Assembly: GCA_040384765.1 (NCBI GenBank)
Contig: JAZKIQ010000010.1
Coordinates: 43,208 to 80,416 of the forward strand
DNA: 37,209 bases
DNA from: Patescibacteria group bacterium
Lineage (GTDB): Bacteria; Patescibacteriota; Minisyncoccia; Phycocordibacterales; JBBUBG01
Direction of reading: 5' to 3'
Positions within the stretch are counted from its first letter, which is position 1. The number at the start of each line of letters is the position of its first letter. The position numbers and the translations under genes were made by a program. Below, in pieces: positions 10 through 8,100 of the stretch. The notes beneath the pieces were generated by a model. The model was not told where the DNA came from, ran no database searches, and saw only the letters and a program-made list of their open reading frames with translations.

Positions 10-501
10 TCATACACCAAACTGTTTACCGAGAATATGGTGCGGATGTTCTCGATTGAACAGCTCCTCGCTGCGCTCGAGGAGGTACACTCGCTCGATC
101 CCCGCTTCGAGGATAGCACTCCAGCAGTCCTTGCAGGCCCACCAGTGACCCCAGAGGTAGAGGCTTGCCCCATCGGGGTCGTTTCCGCTCTCTCGTGCCG
201 CACGCAGTGCAGACGGCTCTGCGTGATAGGCAGGTGAGCAGCCTTCGCACAACTCGTACCCTTCACCCGTCTTGCAGCCAAGACGCTTGCGTTCGCACCC
301 CTTCTCCTCGTGGAATGCACTGTAGTTTGCTCCCACCCCAAGCACGGAGCCATCGCGCGATACAACCACCGCACCGGTCTTCACCAGAGGGTCAGTCGAG
401 CGCCGAGCCGCCTCCCGAGCAAGCCCCATAAAGCGATCGTCGCTTGGGACGTACAGAAACGTACGCCCTGGGGGGATGAACGGATATGGAATGGATGCCA
501 T
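10..501 (-). CDS. Zn-dependent cytidine/dCMP deaminase-family protein (163 aa)
   Basis: HAE motif, TGAVVV strand and WWACKDC in place of PCxxC, plus an extra Cys cluster (CERKRLGC...LCEGC). The start is reset to the ATG at 501 (MASIPYP) because the longer ORF overlaps thyA antisense. Confidence 0.85.
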   Translation of the reverse strand: MASIPYPFIPPGRTFLYVPSDDRFMGLAREAARRSTDPLVKTGAVVVSRDGSVLGVGANYSAFHEEKGCERKRLGCKTGEGYELCEGCSPAYHAEPSALRAARESGNDPDGASLYLWGHWWACKDCWSAILEAGIERVYLLERSEELFNREHPHHILGKQFGV

Positions 502-567
502 GTTTGTTCCTTTCGTCAATATTGCACCCAAAGGGTGCAGGACTATACTTATCGCAACCGCACCATC

Positions 568-1404
568 ATGGCACATTTTGACCTCCTCTACCAAAACCTC
601 CTGCGTGACATAGAAATGCACGGCATACAGGATGTCAACAAGCGCACCGGACACGAAACGAAGGCAATTCCGGGAGCGCAGTTCTCCATCGATCTCGAAA
701 AAGAGGGCTTCCCGCTTCTTACACTCCGCAAGATCCCTATTCAAGCGTTTATCGCAGAGCAAACCTGGTTTATCTCCGGCTCTCGCAAGCCCGCAGACCT
801 TCTGCGCGACTTCACCAAGATATGGGACGTATTCACGAACCCCGGTGACGTAGTGACCGTCGCATACGGGTATCGCTGGCGCCGCCACTTTGGGCGCGAC
901 CAGCTCAAGCTTCTCATCGATCTTTTGAAAAACGATCAGAGCTCGCGCCACGGAGTGATCGTCACCTGGGACCCAAGCTCAGATGGCCTCGGAGGTCCTG
1001 CGCGCAAAAATGTCCCCTGCCCTTTTACCTTTACCGTCAACATTATTGGCGGGCGGCTTCATCTGCACAACATTATCCGCTCGAACGATGTCATACTTGG
1101 GTTGCCGTTTGATGCAGCAGGGTTTGCATTTCTTGCACTGGTGCTCGCACAGAAGCTGGGTGTGCGCCCAGGTATCTACACACACTCGATCTCCAACGCA
1201 CACGTGTACGACAACCACTACTTCGCAATTCCTGAGCTCCTGCGCCGCCCGGCAGACCACCCAACAATCCACCTCCACCTTCCCGATAAAAGTTTTGAGC
1301 GGGCAGAGAAAAAAGATCCAGACCTTATCCGGGAAGTAGCCGCCCACCTTGAGGCGCAGTACCACCCCGGAGAACCCATCAAAGGCCTCAAGATTGCTTT
1401 GTAA
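568..1404 (+). CDS. thyA: Thymidylate synthase-family protein with Asn->Asp specificity change (possible dCMP methyltransferase)
   Basis: Motifs EQTWF, YGYRWR, SSRH, catalytic PC (Cys151), RSND..LGLPFD and HVY. Start taken at ATG 568 (MAHFD), downstream of TATACT at 544-549. Confidence 0.9.
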   Translation: MAHFDLLYQNLLRDIEMHGIQDVNKRTGHETKAIPGAQFSIDLEKEGFPLLTLRKIPIQAFIAEQTWFISGSRKPADLLRDFTKIWDVFTNPGDVVTVAYGYRWRRHFGRDQLKLLIDLLKNDQSSRHGVIVTWDPSSDGLGGPARKNVPCPFTFTVNIIGGRLHLHNIIRSNDVILGLPFDAAGFAFLALVLAQKLGVRPGIYTHSISNAHVYDNHYFAIPELLRRPADHPTIHLHLPDKSFERAEKKDPDLIREVAAHLEAQYHPGEPIKGLKIAL

Positions 1405-1424
1405 AAAATTTTAACAAGAGAACC

Positions 1425-2057
1425 ATGGCCATAATCGTACGCAGCGAAATAGTGGAGAGAATAAAAAGCGGAGATATGGTGTTCAACCCACCACTCGATA
1501 TCTTCCAGCTTCAGGAGCATGCAATAGATCTGCGCATGGGATTTACCTTCATGGTTCCAAAGCGATGGCACCTTACAAAAGCCGGCCGCGAGTCGCTCGA
1601 CGCCACCCACTTCGACAAGCCAAATAGTGAATATTTCGATATCGTGGAGCTCGAGGAGGGGCAAACGTTCGACCTCCTTCCCCAGGAGTATATTCTCGTA
1701 TCGACTCTTGAATCGATCAAAGTGCCTCGCGACCTGATGGCGGTGATGTATCCACGCTCTTCGACCAACCGCAAAGGCCTCTCGGTCGACCTTACCGGCA
1801 TCATCGACTCTGGATACGAAGGCCAGCTCACCATTCCGATCCGCAACAACACTCAGTCCCAAGTGGTGAAGCTCCACCCTGGCGAGCGCCTCTGCCAGAT
1901 CGTGTTTGAAAAGCTCACGATGTCTGTCGACGCACGCAAGAGCAAATACCACCGACGCGATATTATCGACGGCGTGAAGCGTGAAAAGCGCACCGAGAGC
2001 AAGCTCATTCTTGATGGTGCCATTCGGAAGCTAAAGAGCGATCACAAGATCAAATAA
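1425..2057 (+). CDS. dcd: dCTP deaminase/trimeric dUTPase-fold protein lacking the deaminase Glu
   Basis: Motifs IDLRMG, STLESIKVP, RSS..R.GL, GIIDSGYEG and GERLCQIVF. Pro138 occupies the position of E. coli Dcd Glu138. Confidence 0.85.
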   Translation: MAIIVRSEIVERIKSGDMVFNPPLDIFQLQEHAIDLRMGFTFMVPKRWHLTKAGRESLDATHFDKPNSEYFDIVELEEGQTFDLLPQEYILVSTLESIKVPRDLMAVMYPRSSTNRKGLSVDLTGIIDSGYEGQLTIPIRNNTQSQVVKLHPGERLCQIVFEKLTMSVDARKSKYHRRDIIDGVKREKRTESKLILDGAIRKLKSDHKIK

Positions 2058-2527
2058 TGGCAGAGATTATACTTATCGCTGCCATCGGAAAAAAAACGCG
2101 CGCTATCGGACGCGAGGGAAAGTTGTTGTGGAAAATCCCCGAAGATCTCAAGCGCTTCAAGGTGCTTACGCTCGGCTACCCGATCATAATGGGGAGAAAG
2201 ACTTTTGATTCTATTGGAAAGGCACTGCCTGGCCGAAAAAATTTCGTTATTTCGCGAAATCCCGACTTCGCACATCTGGATATTGAAAAAGTGTCGAGCC
2301 TCGACGAAGCGCTGCTTCTCGCAGAAGAATCAGCCCCGGAAAAGATATTTGTGATCGGCGGAGGAGAGATATACAAGCAAGCACTCACCCGCGCAGACCG
2401 CCTTATGCTTACTCTCGTAGACTCTGACGAGGAAGGCGACACGTTCTTCCCCCCATATCCCGAGTTCTCAAACGTCGTCTCAAAGGAAGATCACGCCGGG
2501 TTTTCGTTTGTGGAGCTCACGCGTTAA
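2057..2527 (+). CDS. folA: Dihydrofolate reductase
   Basis: Motifs LLWKIPEDLKRFK, IIMGRKTFDSIG, LPGR, VIGGGEIY and GDTFFP. Translationally coupled to the upstream gene (TAATG). Confidence 0.95.
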   Translation: MAEIILIAAIGKKTRAIGREGKLLWKIPEDLKRFKVLTLGYPIIMGRKTFDSIGKALPGRKNFVISRNPDFAHLDIEKVSSLDEALLLAEESAPEKIFVIGGGEIYKQALTRADRLMLTLVDSDEEGDTFFPPYPEFSNVVSKEDHAGFSFVELTR

Positions 2528-2536
2528 TCTATCTCA

Positions 2537-3235
2537 ATGCCCTATCTCATCCTCAAAGCACGCGATACGATCGCAGAAAACACCACACAGTTCACCTTTG
2601 AGACTCCGCCCGACTTTTCTTTTAAAGCAGGTCAAGCCGTGGATCTAACACTCGAGAATATGTCGTACACCGACGACGCGGGTGCCACTCGCACCTTCTC
2701 GATCTCAAGCTCACCAAATCATAAAGGCGAGATCACCATCGCCACACGTAACTCAAGCTCTGCTTGGAAACGCACGATGTTCGAGGCACCCATGGGTCAA
2801 AAGATCTCGTACACAAACCCAACCGGACAGTTTAACCTCCCCCGCAAACCGGAGGAGCACCTTATCTTTGTCGCGGGCGGTATTGGCATAACACCGTTTA
2901 TGTCGCTCGTCCGCTACGCAACGGAAGAGAAACGTTTCGACAAGATCACGCTTATCTACTCAAATAAAAGCGAGGCGACCGCCGTATACCTTGCCGAGCT
3001 CCGTGCGCTTGCCGCAGAAAATCCCAACCTCACCCTTATCGAAAACTACGGTTCGCTCACATCTGAGATCATCACAAAAGCCGCGCAAGCTGACCCACTC
3101 CCCAAGCTCTACTATATTGCAGGTCCGATCGGCATGGTTGGGATGGCGCACAAAACGGTCCAAGAAACAGGTGTCGATGATAATGATATCCTCATTGAGG
3201 AGTTCGCCGGATACGACCCTTCCGTACTCCACTAG
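2537..3235 (+). CDS. Ferredoxin-NADP reductase-like FAD/NAD(P) oxidoreductase
   Basis: Motifs FKAGQ, RTFSISS, AGGIGITP, YIAGP (Ala for the usual Cys) and C-terminal EEF. Confidence 0.85.
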   Translation: MPYLILKARDTIAENTTQFTFETPPDFSFKAGQAVDLTLENMSYTDDAGATRTFSISSSPNHKGEITIATRNSSSAWKRTMFEAPMGQKISYTNPTGQFNLPRKPEEHLIFVAGGIGITPFMSLVRYATEEKRFDKITLIYSNKSEATAVYLAELRALAAENPNLTLIENYGSLTSEIITKAAQADPLPKLYYIAGPIGMVGMAHKTVQETGVDDNDILIEEFAGYDPSVLH

Positions 3236-3288
3236 GGTGTGATACAACCGAGGAGGAACACGGTTCACGAACACGAAGGAGGTGCGGA

Positions 3289-4047
3289 ATGCAGATACTC
3301 TCAGATGCTCATCATCTTGAAACGATCGTGCGCCTCCAGGCGTGGCGATTGCTCGAGAAGGCGGAGAAGCTGAAGACGACGATGAAAAAGATTGGCGCCC
3401 AGGCGTTCGTCACTGACTGGGATGACACCGTCGCATATGGCGTCGTTGCCTGGTTTGAGAAGGCAATTGTGGATCTTGGCCAGGCTGACTACGACAAGCA
3501 TCTCGACGGCTGGGGCATGTACCAGAAGTACAAGGTGTTCAACAACGTGAAGTACTGGGACCCGGTCAGATTTGACCGCTGGGCCCAGAACACCGTCGAC
3601 CAGAACGACCTCGATCCGCACGTAGCGGCTATTCCAGGCAGTATCGAAGCTCTCTGGAAAATACCGAGCGAGACCCACCTGTGGTTCGCCGGATACCTCT
3701 CGGCACGAAGGGAACGAAACGAGGAGAGCATGCGGCGCATGCTCGAGCGTCTCGGTGCACCTCCCGGAGAGCTGTTCTTTCCGCCAAACCACGCAACGTA
3801 CGCAGACACGCACAAGATAAAGTGCGAGCTGCTCCGGTACATGTACCCCGAAGTACAGCTTCATATTGACGATCACCCGCTGATCATCAAAGAAGCTTCG
3901 GTACACTTCCCCGGACGTCTCTGCCACTTCAACGCCGACGCTGAGGGAGAGTGCCCCCAGGGCAAGATCATCAGTGCAAGCGGCCGCGAGTGGAGCTACC
4001 TCCGCAAGCGCCTGGCACACCACTACCCGCGCAAGCGCGTAGCGTAG
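3289..4047 (+). CDS. HAD-superfamily hydrolase, 5'(3')-deoxyribonucleotidase-like
   Basis: DWDDT motif I, LSAR motif II and IDD motif IV. Strong SD AAGGAGGT at 3276-3283. Confidence 0.65.
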   Translation: MQILSDAHHLETIVRLQAWRLLEKAEKLKTTMKKIGAQAFVTDWDDTVAYGVVAWFEKAIVDLGQADYDKHLDGWGMYQKYKVFNNVKYWDPVRFDRWAQNTVDQNDLDPHVAAIPGSIEALWKIPSETHLWFAGYLSARRERNEESMRRMLERLGAPPGELFFPPNHATYADTHKIKCELLRYMYPEVQLHIDDHPLIIKEASVHFPGRLCHFNADAEGECPQGKIISASGREWSYLRKRLAHHYPRKRVA

Positions 4048-4076
4048 CGGCAACAAGCCTGCCACGCAACGAGCGC

Positions 4077-4114
4077 AAAAGCCGCGATCCCTTCGGGATC
4101 GCGGCTCTTTTTTT
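4077..4114. terminator. Bidirectional intrinsic terminator
   Basis: AAAA-GCCGCGATCC-cttcg-GGATCGCGGC followed by a T-run, between convergent genes. Confidence 0.8.
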
Positions 4115-4149
4115 CTTCTGACCTTCTGTACTTAAACTACTGAAATTTC

Positions 4150-4575
4150 TTATACAATCTCAATCCCCATGCTGCGAGCCGTACCCGCAATAATCTTCAT
4201 CCCCGACTCAAGATCGTTTGCGTTGAGATCAACCATCTTCTTCTCAGTCACCTCTTTCAACTGAGCCTTAGTGATCTTGCCTGCCTTCTTGGTCAAGTTG
4301 GTGCCTGAGCCCTTCTCTGCCTTTGCAGCCTTAAGGAGAAGGTTCGATGCGGGAGGAGTCTTCAGGATAAAATCGAAGCTTCGGTTCTCATAGACACTGA
4401 TCTCTACAGGGATAATATCCCCGATCATCGAGCGCGTAGCGTCGTTGAAGCTCTTAATAAACTCACCAATATTGATACCTGCACCACCAAGAGCCGGACC
4501 AATAGGAGGCGTAGGAACAGCCTTTCCTGCCGGAATCTGGAGTCTGAGTACTTTTGTTACTTTTTTGCCTGCCAT
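4150..4575 (-). CDS. rplK: 50S ribosomal protein L11
   Basis: Motifs [26 protein letters not shown] and IAGTARSMG. Confidence 0.97.
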
Positions 4576-4594
4576 AAGTATGGTCTAAACTACC

Positions 4595-5140
4595 TTAAAT
4601 TCGATTGACCTGCAAGAAGTCGAGCTCGACGGGGGTCTCGCGGCCAAACATTGAGACGAGCACCTTCACCTTGCCGCGCTCCTCGTCGACCTCATTTACC
4701 TTCCCTTCGAAGTCCTTAAACGGACCGTCGACAATGCGTACCGACTCACCTTTTGTAAGGTCGATCTTGTGCTTGATAATATCGGCGCCCATGCGCTTAA
4801 AGAGCACATCCACTTCAGCCTGGTCGAGTGGCACAGGAGAGACACCTGCTCCCACAAAGCCGGTCACCCGAGGGGTATTGCGCACCACGTACCATGAGTC
4901 ATCGGTAACGATCATATCTACAAGCACATAGCCTGGATAGATCTTTTCCTCAACAGTTACGCGTTTTGCGCCCTTGGTCTTTATCTTCTTTTCCGTAGGA
5001 ACGATTACGCCAAAAATCTTATCCTCCATACCGAGGGACTCGATGCGATGCTTAAGGTTGCGCGCCACAGCATTCTCATATCCTGAGTAGGTGTGGATCG
5101 CATACCAGTGGCGCTCGGGGCGAATTTCTTGTCGTGCCAT
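4595..5140 (-). CDS. nusG: Transcription termination/antitermination factor NusG
   Basis: Motifs WYAIHTYSGYE, YPGYVLV, VRNTPRVTGF, KOW GPFKDFEG and FGRETPVEL. Confidence 0.97.
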   Translation of the reverse strand: MARQEIRPERHWYAIHTYSGYENAVARNLKHRIESLGMEDKIFGVIVPTEKKIKTKGAKRVTVEEKIYPGYVLVDMIVTDDSWYVVRNTPRVTGFVGAGVSPVPLDQAEVDVLFKRMGADIIKHKIDLTKGESVRIVDGPFKDFEGKVNEVDEERGKVKVLVSMFGRETPVELDFLQVNRI

Positions 5141-5151
5141 GTTATTCGTAG

Positions 5152-5179
5152 AAAGTTAAAAGTCCAAAGTCAAAAGCTA
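5152..5179. repeat. Degenerate heptamer tandem repeat (4 x AAAGTNN-like)
   Basis: aaagtta aaagtcc aaagtca aaagcta in the secE-nusG spacer. Confidence 0.5.
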
Positions 5180-5359
5180 GCGAACGAGAATGAGCGAAAC
5201 GAGCTGGAAAAAGCCGTAGTCAACAAGGGCAAGGAAGAGTGCGACGACCACAGAAACGCCGATCACGAGGCCGGTATACTGGATCACCTGCTCGCGAGAA
5301 AGCCACTTTACGTGCCTAAACTCCGCACGAGTCTCTTGGATATAGTTTGTTAATGACAT
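5177..5359 (-). CDS. secE: Preprotein translocase subunit SecE
   Basis: E.RHVKW motif plus a single TM helix, located upstream of nusG. Confidence 0.93.
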   Translation of the reverse strand: MSLTNYIQETRAEFRHVKWLSREQVIQYTGLVIGVSVVVALFLALVDYGFFQLVSLILVR

Positions 5360-5460
5360 TTTATTGGAAATTGCCCCTTAAGAAAAACCGCCCCGGAGGG
5401 CTGTATTTCTGTAGGATACCAGAGGTAAAACCATCCGTCAAACCCAAAGATGGCTTCGGA

Positions 5461-5802
5461 CTACCTGTTGTCCCCCGAGCCGTGGAGCACCCCCCGAGCC
5501 TTACGGGAAGCCAGCTTTTCGATATTCATCTGGGCCACCTCATCGAGGGTCGAGCCAAGCTCATGCGCACAGGCTGAGACGTACCAGAGCACATCCCCCA
5601 CCTCAGCAAGCAGAGCTTTTCTATCCTCTGGAGTAAACGGCTGTTTCGGGTCGTACGAGATCTCTCGAATAATCTTTTTGAGCTTGTCAGCCACTTCGCC
5701 CGACTCCCCCGCAAGACCGAGTACTGCATACATAAGGTTGTGCCCTCGATCCTTATAGAGCGCGGTCCCATCAGCCGCATCGTCATATTCGCGTAATGTC
5801 AT
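5461..5802 (-). CDS. MazG-like nucleoside triphosphate pyrophosphohydrolase
   Basis: Motifs LGLAGESGEVADKLKK and EVGDVLWY, ending GSGDNR. Confidence 0.88.
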   Translation of the reverse strand: MTLREYDDAADGTALYKDRGHNLMYAVLGLAGESGEVADKLKKIIREISYDPKQPFTPEDRKALLAEVGDVLWYVSACAHELGSTLDEVAQMNIEKLASRKARGVLHGSGDNR

Positions 5803-5834
5803 ACTAAAAATATACCAGCTGTTAAGAAATGAAC

Positions 5835-5951
5835 CAGCTCATAAAATCCTTCATATGCGAGGCGCGAGCGAGCATTGAGCGGAGTTATACAAAGGTACTA
5901 CTCCGCGAGTGGCGGAGCTCGCAACAAAGCAGATGAGGATTTTATGAGCTG
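5835..5951. repeat. MITE-like palindromic element (117 bp)
   Basis: Perfect 16-bp terminal inverted repeat CAGCTCATAAAATCCT / AGGATTTTATGAGCTG. Subterminal sequence resembles the elements at 9673 and 26882. Confidence 0.7.
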
Positions 5952-5969
5952 CGGCTACTAAGCAGTAAA

Positions 5970-7160
5970 TTATCTTTCCTCTGCCATCTGAGCTTTGAGT
6001 TGTTTTGAAGCCATAGTGTATCCCCCGTCAGCACCATCAATGAAGTGAACCTGTCTGCCGCGATGTTCGAACACGAGGCAGGTCATAACCGCGCGATTTG
6101 AAACATGCATGCCATAAAAAATCTTCCCTTCCCCTCGAAGCTCTTCGAGGTAGGTCGCTAAGGCTTTCCGTTTTTCCGGCGTGCCCGCGATTACCATACG
6201 CAAAAGATCATCAAACTTTTTGTAATCGCTTGAGCTTATGATGCGCCGTTTGTATTGCGGAAAGTCATAAAAAGGCTCTGAAATTCCTGAGCGCTCAAGA
6301 AGCACCGCACCCAAAAAGAGAAGTCCAAACTGCACCCTGAAAAGCCATTTGGAAAGTGTGCTTGAGTGCGAAGCAAGAACAGACGCCTCCCTCTCTACTA
6401 CCGCTGTTGAAAATGGCAATGCCAGCTTTTCAAGTGCAACGGGATGGTGCATCTCGATCGGGCCAAAGAGCGTTTCAACCTGCGCGATGATATCCCGATA
6501 CAAAGCAGCATCAGCACCTTCTTCACTTTTTGCTTTTATGATAAGGCTTATCGTTTCACCATACCGACTCTCTACGTCTCGCCAGCGGCACGAGAGCCCA
6601 TGGAGATCGGCTTCTCCTTGCACAGAGGGCATTGAAAGCGCATACCTCTTTTCAGTCTCGAGGCCTTTGACGAGCTTCTCGGCATACGACAATCCTCCGC
6701 CGCGAAACATTGCTTGATGGTACTCCTTTGATATATGGAATTTTGAAACGAGGATAGGGTGACCGGCAGCAACGATCTCTGACACTGCAATAATCCCTAC
6801 ACGAAGATCCATACCGAAACCTTCTTTCGCTTTTAGCTGCGCATCTGCAAGCGCCCGGCGAGACTCGTTCATCATGCTTGGCGGCAGCACAAAAGTGGCC
6901 CCATCTCCACCAAACACAAACGGTATATCGAGATTCCCTGCGACATGGAGAAGTGCAGCAATCGAAGAAGCTCCTACCAGGTTTACCTCTTTGTAGAGAC
7001 CGGCCTCGATCGCTTTTGTAGAACCTCGTACGTCCGTGATCACGACCCACCAGTCTTCTGGAACAGGCACATAGTTACCAGGATTAGCAACATCGCCAAA
7101 ATCCCGAAGAGACGGAAGGTCGTGATAAAAATTGCTTGTATCAATTTTTGAGTCGCTCAT
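5970..7160 (-). CDS. DUF3095-like protein (nucleotidyl cyclase-like N-terminus)
   Basis: Motifs TDVRGST, YKEVN, FVFGGDGA, LSCRW, KFDD.LRM and HFIDGADGGY. Confidence 0.75.
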   Translation of the reverse strand: MSDSKIDTSNFYHDLPSLRDFGDVANPGNYVPVPEDWWVVITDVRGSTKAIEAGLYKEVNLVGASSIAALLHVAGNLDIPFVFGGDGATFVLPPSMMNESRRALADAQLKAKEGFGMDLRVGIIAVSEIVAAGHPILVSKFHISKEYHQAMFRGGGLSYAEKLVKGLETEKRYALSMPSVQGEADLHGLSCRWRDVESRYGETISLIIKAKSEEGADAALYRDIIAQVETLFGPIEMHHPVALEKLALPFSTAVVEREASVLASHSSTLSKWLFRVQFGLLFLGAVLLERSGISEPFYDFPQYKRRIISSSDYKKFDDLLRMVIAGTPEKRKALATYLEELRGEGKIFYGMHVSNRAVMTCLVFEHRGRQVHFIDGADGGYTMASKQLKAQMAEER

Positions 7161-7183
7161 TATCAAAAAAGTATGGCATGGTC

Positions 7184-7279
7184 AGAAGTTTCAGTACAGA
7201 AGAGCTAAAGCTGGCACAAAAAACAGCGCCCGAAGGGGCGCTGTTTTTTGTACTTCTGGTCTTCTGTACTGAAACTTCT
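7184..7279. terminator. Terminator hairpin nested in a 20-bp outer inverted repeat
   Basis: Inner stem ACAAAAAACAGCGCCC / GGGCGCTGTTTTTTGT. Outer perfect IR AGAAGTTTCAGTACAGAAGA (7184-7203) / 7260-7279. Confidence 0.75.
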
Positions 7280-7290
7280 TCCAGCCTCTC

Positions 7291-8100
7291 CTACCGTATC
7301 TCGTACGTAATGTTTACGTTTGAGCTGATCTTGTTTTCACCCTGAGGAAGCTCGGTCGGTGCCACCTGCGCTACAGCGCTCCCTCCTCGGCCATCAGCTG
7401 CGTACTCAAGCTTCGCGTAGCTCGGATAGAATCCAGACTCCGAGAAAGAGACGACGCGCACGATGCGTACACCAAGATCACGTGCGAGTGCCTGCGCTTT
7501 TTCTCTCGCATCTGCAATCGCGAGCTCACGTGCTTTGCGTTTCAACTCCTCGTCATTGTCTTGCGTGAAGTTTACTCCGCTTACATTCGTAACTTTGAGA
7601 GCGCCAAGTCCGTCAACAATCTCCCCAGCCTTGTCAGGCGTGCGTACCTTTACAGAAAACTGCTGGTTGACGCGGTAGCCAACAAGTACCTGTTTGCCTG
7701 AAGGTGGACATGAGTACTCAGTGCAGACAGACGACTTGATCTGCTCATACGAATACTCCGGATAGAAGCTATAGTCAGCCGTCTTGATATCCTTGTCGGC
7801 AATTCCCGATTTTTTGAGATAATCGAGCGCGGCGTTCGCTACTTCGCGGGCTTCTTTCTGGGCATCTGCGACAGTCTTCGCTTTTGTCTCTACTCCAAAG
7901 GTAAACTGGGCGATATCGGGCGTTGCAAACACCTCTCCCTTACCTTCAACGGTAATGGTAGGGCCTTTCGGCTCGATGCTCGATCCCCAGTAGTCCTGCC
8001 ACCCCGCAAGCGTCTTCACGCCGAGGAAAAGTGCAAGAACAACAAGAACAACCGAGAGATATTGCAGATTTCTTTTTTTATCAGCGTGAAGATCGTTCAT
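7291..8100 (-). CDS. SIMPL (DUF541) domain protein
   Basis: N-terminal TM, ITVEGKGEV.ATPD.A, DIKT, AIADAREKA..LA..LGV, ending V.ITYEIR. Confidence 0.88.
   Translation of the reverse strand: MNDLHADKKRNLQYLSVVLVVLALFLGVKTLAGWQDYWGSSIEPKGPTITVEGKGEVFATPDIAQFTFGVETKAKTVADAQKEAREVANAALDYLKKSGIADKDIKTADYSFYPEYSYEQIKSSVCTEYSCPPSGKQVLVGYRVNQQFSVKVRTPDKAGEIVDGLGALKVTNVSGVNFTQDNDEELKRKARELAIADAREKAQALARDLGVRIVRVVSFSESGFYPSYAKLEYAADGRGGSAVAQVAPTELPQGENKISSNVNITYEIR

Follow-up and report, generated by a model that had tools for sequence, protein, structure and literature searches.

The textbook cellular routes to thymidylate all pass through dUMP, by way of either ThyA or ThyX. How, then, is dTMP made in a cell whose only thymidylate synthase (TS) homolog has an active site of the cytosine type? 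This question is raised by a gene cluster in the first 2,527 nt of a 37,209-nt stretch of DNA (the window; contig 10, JAZKIQ010000010.1, positions 43208-80416) from the assembly GCA_040384765.1 of a Patescibacteria group bacterium, a genome of 822,710 bp in 12 contigs with a completeness score of 99.8%. The cluster consists of a divergently transcribed zinc deaminase gene and a tight run of genes for homologs of ThyA (thymidylate synthase), Dcd (dCTP deaminase) and FolA (dihydrofolate reductase, DHFR), a composition proposed in an initial annotation of the window and confirmed here by coordinates and Pfam matches (E-values of 4.3e-13 for dCMP_cyt_deam_1, 5.8e-51 for Thymidylat_synt, 3.3e-33 for DCD and 3.9e-47 for DHFR_1). 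From the active sites, conservation and genomic setting of these genes, we lean towards a pathway that would convert dCTP to dCMP, dCMP to 5-methyl-dCMP and 5-methyl-dCMP to dTMP, with methylation and deamination in the reverse of the textbook order. The core features are as follows.

10-501, minus strand: zinc deaminase of the dCMP-deaminase family (163 aa; Pfam PF00383)
502-567: divergent intergenic region between the deaminase and ThyA-homolog genes (66 bp, measured from the start codons)
568-1404, plus strand: ThyA homolog of the thymidylate-synthase family (278 aa; Pfam PF00303)
1425-2057, plus strand: Dcd homolog with a Dcd fold (210 aa; Pfam DCD PF22769), 20 nt after the ThyA homolog
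2057-2527, plus strand: FolA, dihydrofolate reductase (156 aa; Pfam DHFR_1)

The start of folA overlaps the stop of the dcd-like gene by 1 nt, and the intergenic region presumably holds the promoters of both the deaminase and the ThyA homolog.

Active sites of the three core enzymes

Alignment of the ThyA homolog to solved thymidylate synthases with HMMER places its Asp182 (own numbering here and below) under the Asn of the 'gvpfNiasy' segment (the Asn177 position) and its Pro152 under the His of 'pcH' (the His147 position), while Cys151 falls in the column of the catalytic Cys. Among the features of a dUMP-type ThyA, the PF00303 fold and the catalytic Cys are thus present, and the uracil-selecting Asn177 and His147 are absent. 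The three residues are conserved in a set of 84 orthologous proteins, with Asp182 and Cys151 found in 84/84 and Pro152 in 82/84 (Leu in the other two). PMC8670742 names positions 177 and 147 as those that best separate TS homologs of cytosine-modified contigs from those of unmodified contigs, and papers cited there report that the change of Asn177/229 to Asp makes TS a dCMP methylase. The window protein also has a TS-like C-terminal tail (PIKGLKIAL, within YHPGEPIKGLKIAL; the corresponding tail in genome G198, which carries a canonical ThyA, reads YHPPIKAEMAV). We propose for the ThyA homolog a role in the folate-dependent C5-methylation of dCMP, with dihydrofolate as the second product.

Similarly, HMMER alignment to solved dCTP deaminases places Pro138 of the Dcd homolog in the column of the 'tlEl' Glu. 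Deamination by Dcd requires this catalytic Glu138. Proline occupies the position in 36/36 aligned homologs and in at least 95% of a set of 79, and the near-invariance of Pro138 and of Asp182/Pro152 rules out chance or sequencing error as the source of the changes. Asp182, Pro138 and Asp122 are numbered as the initial annotation had them, and the first two lie in the key columns; Ile126, to which it had also pointed, was discarded as a meaningful change, given that relatives with the Glu likewise have a hydrophobic residue (F, W, I or V) in its column. Other parts of the Dcd active site are retained. The Ser111/Arg115-type residues (S112, S113 and R116) are invariant in 36/36 aligned homologs, the CQ motif is kept, and invariant columns at D35, P110-R-S-S113, D128, Y131 and Q158 are what we take to be motifs I-IV of trimeric dUTPases (Asp, PRSS, IDxxY and Gln). 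Motif V of dUTPases (GFGSTG) was not found at the C-terminus of the Dcd homolog, and the protein falls below the TIGR00576 dUTPase cut-off (52.3 vs 102.55 bits). It is the only gene product of the dUTPase/Dcd superfamily in the host genome. We propose that it hydrolyses dCTP to dCMP and pyrophosphate (PPi) with no deamination. Two candidate precedents for such an enzyme were set aside: T4 gp56, which belongs to the all-alpha dUTPase_2 proteins, shows no similarity to the Dcd-fold enzyme, and the two Dcd-like proteins of archaeal viruses that were aligned both keep the Glu. Two solved proteins of 155-156 aa named 'dCTP deaminase' (PDB 9ln0 and 8y1w) have Met in the catalytic column ('ltlMlyn').

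Standard annotation hides both variants, as the initial annotation had stated: the ThyA homolog lies above the cut-off of the thymidylate synthase equivalog TIGR03284 (121.7 vs 108.35 bits) and the Dcd homolog above that of the dCTP deaminase equivalog TIGR02274 (111.4 vs 92.8 bits). In a large protein collection, the 120 best named homologs of the ThyA homolog are labelled 'thymidylate synthase' or 'hypothetical protein'; 2078 protein clusters match it at E <= 1e-30.

The deaminase carries the zinc motifs HAE and GHWWACKDC, both conserved across 82 sequences, and an additional C..C.GC cysteine cluster. Among solved structures, its best match is the human dCMP deaminase (2w4l, 1.9e-6). The protein scores 49.5 bits against PF00383 (cut-off 25), within the 36-50 bits of its family and below the 55-101 bits of relatives, and lies far below the ComEB equivalog cut-off (30.1 vs 219 bits). 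The G(Y/W)N(A/G) motif, through which dCTP and dTTP act allosterically on dCMP deaminase according to PMC12088426, is absent from the window protein, which has GANYS in its place; the same source describes dCMP deaminase (DCTD) as active on 5-methyl-dCMP. No other PF00383 or CDA-fold match was detected in the host genome, and the PF00383 search detected no TadA-type tRNA adenosine deaminase there. We propose that the enzyme converts 5-methyl-dCMP to dTMP; it probably converts dCMP to dUMP as well.

The phage relatives of the ThyA homolog point in the same direction as its active site. Its best phage matches are the TS homologs of the Bradleyvirinae Donnerlittchen, Mallos and ZQG1 (36-39% identity), and the Mallos enzyme in turn shares 63.7% identity with its Xp12 counterpart and 64.4% with the PaMx74 enzyme. 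A quick IQ-TREE tree of 50 sequences with long branches separates all 26 Asn-type sequences of the relatives searched from the Asp types by a branch with 98% support; on the Asp side lie the cellular type (20 rows, 92%), the Xp12 group (3 rows, 100%) and T4 gp42, no sister pairing of the cellular and Xp12 types being given. A preprint (10.1101/2024.12.05.627091) reports that the Xp12 enzyme and five of seven Asp-type homologs make 5-methyl-dCMP (5mdCMP), and that neighbouring enzymes of the dCMP-deaminase family deaminate 5-methyl- and 5-hydroxymethyl-cytosine nucleotides. It also proposes, with reference to old labelling work on Xp12, that such phages make dT from 5-methyl-dC nucleotides, bypassing a dUMP synthase.

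Distribution and genomic setting of the cluster

A scan of species genomes with two family motifs returned 422 stretches, 307 of which encode a relative of the ThyA homolog, and the locus counts given here refer to the best 80 of these 307 (64-72% identical). All 80 come from Patescibacteria/Parcubacteria bins (Taylor-, Kaiser-, Adler-, Vogel-, Colwell- and Moraniibacteria, among others). The deaminase gene is adjacent in 77 loci and a Glu-less Dcd gene is present in 76; glyA occurs in 57 loci, folA in 47 of them overall and tmk in 39. All four loci without Dcd lie at contig ends, and in the three genomes without an adjacent deaminase it is encoded elsewhere or cut by a contig edge. The divergent deaminase/ThyA arrangement is shared by most of the 80 loci and by three genomes of the same order (G060, G030 and G032). 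Upstream of the window, on the strand of the deaminase, lie glyA (serine hydroxymethyltransferase; L002 8651-9820, minus strand) and tmk (thymidylate kinase; L002 7776-8519, minus strand). A scaffold gap (a run of N at L002 9958-10000, just before the first base of the window) separates glyA from the deaminase. In most of the 80 loci the cluster sits between glyA-tmk and rplK-nusG, a position that rules out a prophage or mobile origin. Judged by its genes, the neighbourhood is a complete thymidylate cycle whose only synthase has a predicted cytosine-type active site.

Closer to the host, a ThyA match was found in 36 of the 61 genomes of the same family and order. Residues were examined in 28 of the other 35, three of which carry the Asp+Pro pair (G030, G032 and G060; 64-67% identical) and 25 Asn+His; the seven left out have ThyA matches of <=34% identity, and one of these (G055) was later found to be Asn/His. 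The three Asp-type genomes cluster deaminase, ThyA and Dcd genes as in the window, near glyA-tmk and rplK-nusG. Within this order the Pro-type Dcd is confined to four Asp-type genomes, and 14 other single-domain Dcd homologs have Glu (12), Asp (1) or Ala (1) in the catalytic column, many of the Glu-keeping ones adjoining an Asn-type ThyA. Several Asn-type ThyA proteins of the order (L014, L016-L019 and L021) have an insertion of ~35-45 residues after the IWD motif. We infer that relatives in the order use the three protein families in textbook order and that the Asp-type lineages are those with two changed active sites.

A class-wide sample of 301 genomes gave a PF00303 match in 118. The residue check covered the 16 matches of intermediate score, the others being ~59 matches of high score and the weak partial ones, and found Asp/Pro in two (G063 and G152; 51-56% identical) and Asn/His in 14. 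In both G063 and G152 the cluster of the distant Asp-type ThyA again includes a Dcd homolog (42-44%) and the deaminase (38-41%). Many genomes of the class also contain open reading frames (ORFs) of 470-560 aa with a partial TS domain (profile positions ~90-230, 50-80 bits; for example G132:C1:262322, G325:C32:1631 and G105:C13:15197), and there are other ORFs of ~270 aa scoring 25-37 bits.

Other routes to dTMP were sought in 56 Asp-type genomes (the host, five others and 50 further). The Asp-type ThyA is the sole PF00303 match in 56/56 (the host, 5/5 and 50/50), and ThyX was not found in 49/56 (the host, 5/5 and 43/50). The seven remaining genomes comprise one in which the ThyX match is a fragment on another contig, one with a weak match containing stops and five with a match beside the cluster. 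The absence of canonical thyA and thyX, which the initial annotation had put forward as a test, therefore stands for ThyA and for most genomes with respect to ThyX, and breaks down in the five of the 50 that encode the fusion of Tmk and ThyX described below. In the host genome thymidine kinase was not found, nor was dNK, for which the only signal was a sub-threshold match inside tmk; one of the five other Asp-type genomes has a thymidine kinase. The host also encodes a ribonucleotide reductase of 773 aa with an ATP cone and a TNPCGEI motif, and a uracil-DNA glycosylase.

Three further features of the window lie downstream of folA.

2537-3235, plus strand: FNR-like FAD/NAD(P)-binding oxidoreductase (232 aa; Pfam NAD_binding_1 and FAD_binding_6)
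3289-4047, plus strand: ORF without a Pfam or NCBIfam match (252 aa), with a DWDDT stretch
5461-5802, minus strand: MazG-type nucleotide pyrophosphohydrolase (113 aa; Pfam MazG, 2.5e-10)

The FNR-like gene and the 252-aa ORF were both rejected as parts of the system, neither having a homolog in the 80 related loci; the DWDDT stretch of the latter fits what we take to be the DxDxT motif of HAD phosphatases, and the protein may be a nucleotidase. The MazG-type protein is 42% identical to the product of a MazG-like gene beside the cluster in G032, and such a gene occurs in 14/80 loci; it is possibly a house-cleaning dUTP/dNTP pyrophosphatase.

The order of methylation and deamination

Taken together, these observations suggest the following scheme. 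The Glu-less Dcd-fold enzyme would hydrolyse dCTP to dCMP and PPi without deaminating it, and the Asp182/Pro152 ThyA homolog would use methylene-tetrahydrofolate to turn dCMP into 5-methyl-dCMP and dihydrofolate, the cofactor being regenerated by FolA and the upstream GlyA. The divergently transcribed deaminase would then turn 5-methyl-dCMP into dTMP, which the upstream Tmk would take to dTDP. Each substrate assignment, the placing of deamination at the monophosphate level and the ordinary cytosine of the genomic DNA are inferred from the genes. The deaminase is probably promiscuous, acting on both dCMP and 5-methyl-dCMP, and some dUMP is likely still formed. The swapped order, which the initial annotation had put forward as a reversal of the textbook order, is supported by the genomic tests (the sole synthase, the linkage and the phage kin) and is not unprecedented, having already been proposed for 5-methylcytosine (5mC) phages such as Xp12.

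Several findings weigh against this scheme or narrow it. A GHWW deaminase of the same family (38-52% identity) occurs in four genomes (G108, G169, G307 and G071), all of which have ThyX and no PF00303 match, and these copies are nested in the clade of deaminases associated with Asp-type ThyA (FastTree; supports 0.90 and 0.95). By their gene content, the deaminase must make dUMP in these four genomes. Since the family serves ThyX genomes, the window enzyme very likely deaminates dCMP too, and the resulting dUMP would have no obvious consumer in the host; for the same reason the 'WWxC' deaminase was dropped as a marker of the pathway. Proteins of 763-802 aa that match ThyX lie beside the cluster in five of the 50 further genomes (L053, L060, L062, L087 and L091). 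That of L053 (5106-7397, minus strand) is a Tmk-ThyX-ThyX fusion (Thymidylate_kin followed by two Thy1 domains), which forms one operon with a GHWW deaminase and faces the Asp-type ThyA. We know of no description of such a kinase-synthase fusion. Genomes with the fusion retain the Asp-type ThyA although, to judge from the genes present, they do not depend on it for dTMP.

The Dcd homolog invites similar caution, as its sequence cannot give the base specificity of the enzyme. A separate canonical dUTPase with motif V is encoded in the thymidylate neighbourhood of 22/80 loci, and in G198 a Pro-type Dcd homolog (42% identical) is paired with a canonical Asn/His ThyA. The cluster of G198 also encodes FolA, two motif-V dUTPases and a canonical PCxxC dCMP deaminase that is divergent from the Pro-type Dcd at a distance of 20 bp.

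L199 (G198:C5) 1752-7337: tmk, canonical ThyA, FolA, two dUTPases, dCMP deaminase and Pro-type Dcd

The G198 combination implies that the Dcd variant is not bound to the Asp-type ThyA. Together with the motif-V dUTPases of the 22 loci, it also argues against the Pro-type Dcd being just the dUTPase of the cell, and fits a dCTP-to-dCMP pyrophosphatase that passes dCMP to the next enzyme. The co-occurrence predicted by the initial annotation for the three variants thus holds in one direction, in that the Asp-type ThyA is accompanied by both the Glu-less Dcd and the deaminase, and fails in the other, in that the Dcd is found with an Asn/His ThyA in G198 and the deaminase in ThyX genomes. A final point concerns the level of deamination: the one phage deaminase that the preprint describes as studied in vitro (mSCD-B5; 10.1101/2024.12.05.627091) acts on 5mdCTP, not on 5mdCMP. 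The claim of the initial annotation that dUMP and dUTP are never made cannot be upheld. The dUTPases of sister loci, the uracil-DNA glycosylase and MazG-type protein of the host, the five Tmk-ThyX fusions and a deaminase that very probably makes dUMP all indicate that the pathway is not uracil-free.

If these points are given full weight, the genes could be read in the conventional order: Dcd would make dCMP, or dUMP from dUTP, the deaminase would make dUMP, and the Asp182 ThyA would methylate dUMP, either with Asp182 protonated or as an enzyme that accepts both bases. G198, with its canonical ThyA, Pro-type Dcd and dCMP deaminase, appears to run exactly this order, the deaminase family must feed dUMP to ThyX in the four ThyX genomes and in the Tmk-ThyX operon of L053, the dUTPase is kept nearby in the 22 loci, and the ThyA homolog does pass TIGR03284. 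Nonetheless, Asp is invariant in all 84 orthologs and position 147 is changed with it, whereas all 25 Asn-type relatives examined retain the His; the Asn177/229-to-Asp change yields a dCMP methylase in the work cited by PMC8670742; and in the quick tree the ThyA homolog lies on the same side of the split as phage dCMP-modifying enzymes, across from the Asn-type ThyAs of its relatives, its closest phage relatives being makers of 5mdCMP according to the preprint (10.1101/2024.12.05.627091). We therefore regard methylation of dUMP by this enzyme as unlikely. Less likely still is a state like that of Xp12, in which dCTP would be destroyed, dCMP methylated and the 5-methyl-dCMP phosphorylated and incorporated, genomic C would be largely or wholly 5mC, and T would come from a deaminated pool, possibly at the triphosphate level. 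The set of functions in the cluster does match the module of Xp12, Mallos and Donnerlittchen, the retention of Asp-type ThyA and Pro-type Dcd in the five genomes with a Tmk-ThyX fusion would be accounted for, and mSCD-B5 prefers 5mdCTP (10.1101/2024.12.05.627091). Such a state assumes modified DNA in a lineage known here from its genes alone, and the linkage to tmk and glyA (39 and 57 of the 80 loci) fits dTMP as the product; no dedicated 5-methyl-dCMP kinase was seen in the cluster. Base composition argues weakly in the same sense, with a median GC content of 47% in Asp-type loci, compared with 42% in those of Asn type from the same order, and a CpG observed/expected ratio of 1.10 in the host genome, values that give no compositional sign of 5mC deamination pressure. 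We also know of no cellular organism with replacement of cytosine at the level of the nucleotide pool.

The Asp at the specificity position and the placement on the same side of the tree are shared with T4 gp42, and would equally be expected of a dCMP hydroxymethylase that supplies 5-hydroxymethyl-dCMP for a hypermodified base. The folate context speaks against such an enzyme. A DHFR of the FolA or RibD_C type is encoded in 67/80 loci, and in 53/57 loci that have at least 2.5 kb of downstream sequence; in G030 and G032 FolA is replaced by a protein of 167-169 aa that matches both RibD_C and DHFR_1. That the DHFR function is kept despite a swap of the protein suggests that the synthase releases dihydrofolate and hence catalyses methylation rather than hydroxymethylation. 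In addition, gp42 stops ~40 residues before the C-terminal TS tail that the ThyA homolog has, the identity of the latter is 23% to gp42 vs 37% to the Xp12 enzyme, and no glycosyltransferase or other transferase is conserved in the 80 loci, the queries used having been those for thymidylate-cycle genes and ribosomal neighbours only. Hydroxymethylation is accordingly very improbable. A reductive methylation coupled to DHFR is what the overlap of folA with the preceding gene, the DHFR linkage and the TS tail suggest, and FolA would recycle the dihydrofolate that it generates.

The distribution of these genes looks like the outcome of successive replacements around a deaminase that stays constant. 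A Tmk-ThyX fusion appears to have been gained beside the cluster in some lineages, and in others only ThyX and the deaminase are found.

Significance and relation to known systems

A cytosine-type enzyme is, in all 56 genomes checked, the only thymidylate-synthase homolog of a lineage that spans at least 307 species genomes. Each of the three leading explanations would be new for a cell, whether 5-methyl-dCMP is the intermediate on the way to dTMP, dUMP is the substrate of a natural Asp-type synthase or 5-methylcytosine enters DNA from the precursor pool; in the last case, if true, these would be the first cellular organisms with base substitution in DNA at the precursor level. The reversed route has so far been proposed only for a few viruses, and its presence in a cellular lineage appears to be new: full-text searches of the literature found neither an Asp-type ThyA nor this pathway described for Patescibacteria or any other cell. 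Because the genes are annotated in the conventional way, the pathway now given in metabolic reconstructions of these ultra-small, uncultured bacteria conflicts with the active sites. The three protein families would be usable in either order, with apparent transitional genomes that have a Tmk-ThyX fusion beside the cluster and other genomes in which ThyX has replaced the synthase and the deaminase alone remains. The enzymes are of small size and should be readily expressed.

The closest known systems are those of Xp12 and PaMx74, whose TS homologs share with the window protein an Asp in place of Asn177 and a Cys-Pro pair at 146-147 (VPCP...LPFD in the window, VPCP...LPYD in Xp12), as well as the motifs AYGYRWRxHFGRDQ, WDP and KNVPCP. 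Xp12, Mallos and Donnerlittchen also encode an NTP pyrophosphohydrolase, a TS homolog, a dCMP deaminase and a DHFR side by side, and the preprint proposes for Xp12 that dT arises from a deaminated 5-methyl-dC nucleotide, bypassing a dUMP-dependent synthase. Unlike the phage module, the present cluster is cellular: a whole bacterial lineage carries it on the chromosome, flanked by glyA-tmk and rplK-nusG. Its pyrophosphatase has a Dcd fold, whereas that of the phages is of the all-alpha PRA-PH/MazG type, and its deaminase is only 27-31% identical to the phage deaminases. The phages replace all C by 5mC, whereas ordinary cytosine DNA is assumed here, and the linkage to tmk suggests deamination at the monophosphate level, in contrast to the triphosphates on which the phage enzyme mSCD-B5 acts.

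In T4, a dCTPase (gp56) likewise feeds an Asp-bearing, cytosine-specific TS homolog (gp42), and the set is completed by the deaminase cd and the DHFR frd. The two systems differ in that gp56 is unrelated to the Dcd-fold enzyme, in that gp42 hydroxymethylates its substrate, is devoid of the C-terminal tail and releases tetrahydrofolate, and in that T4 retains a separate dUMP thymidylate synthase. The canonical thymidylate clusters of same-order relatives and of G198 share with the present one the protein families, the neighbourhood, the folate cycle and often a divergent deaminase/thyA arrangement. From these clusters it differs by the changes of Asn177 to Asp and His147 to Pro in ThyA, by the change of Glu to Pro in Dcd and by a divergent deaminase sequence, and the order of methylation and deamination that we propose for it is the reverse of theirs.

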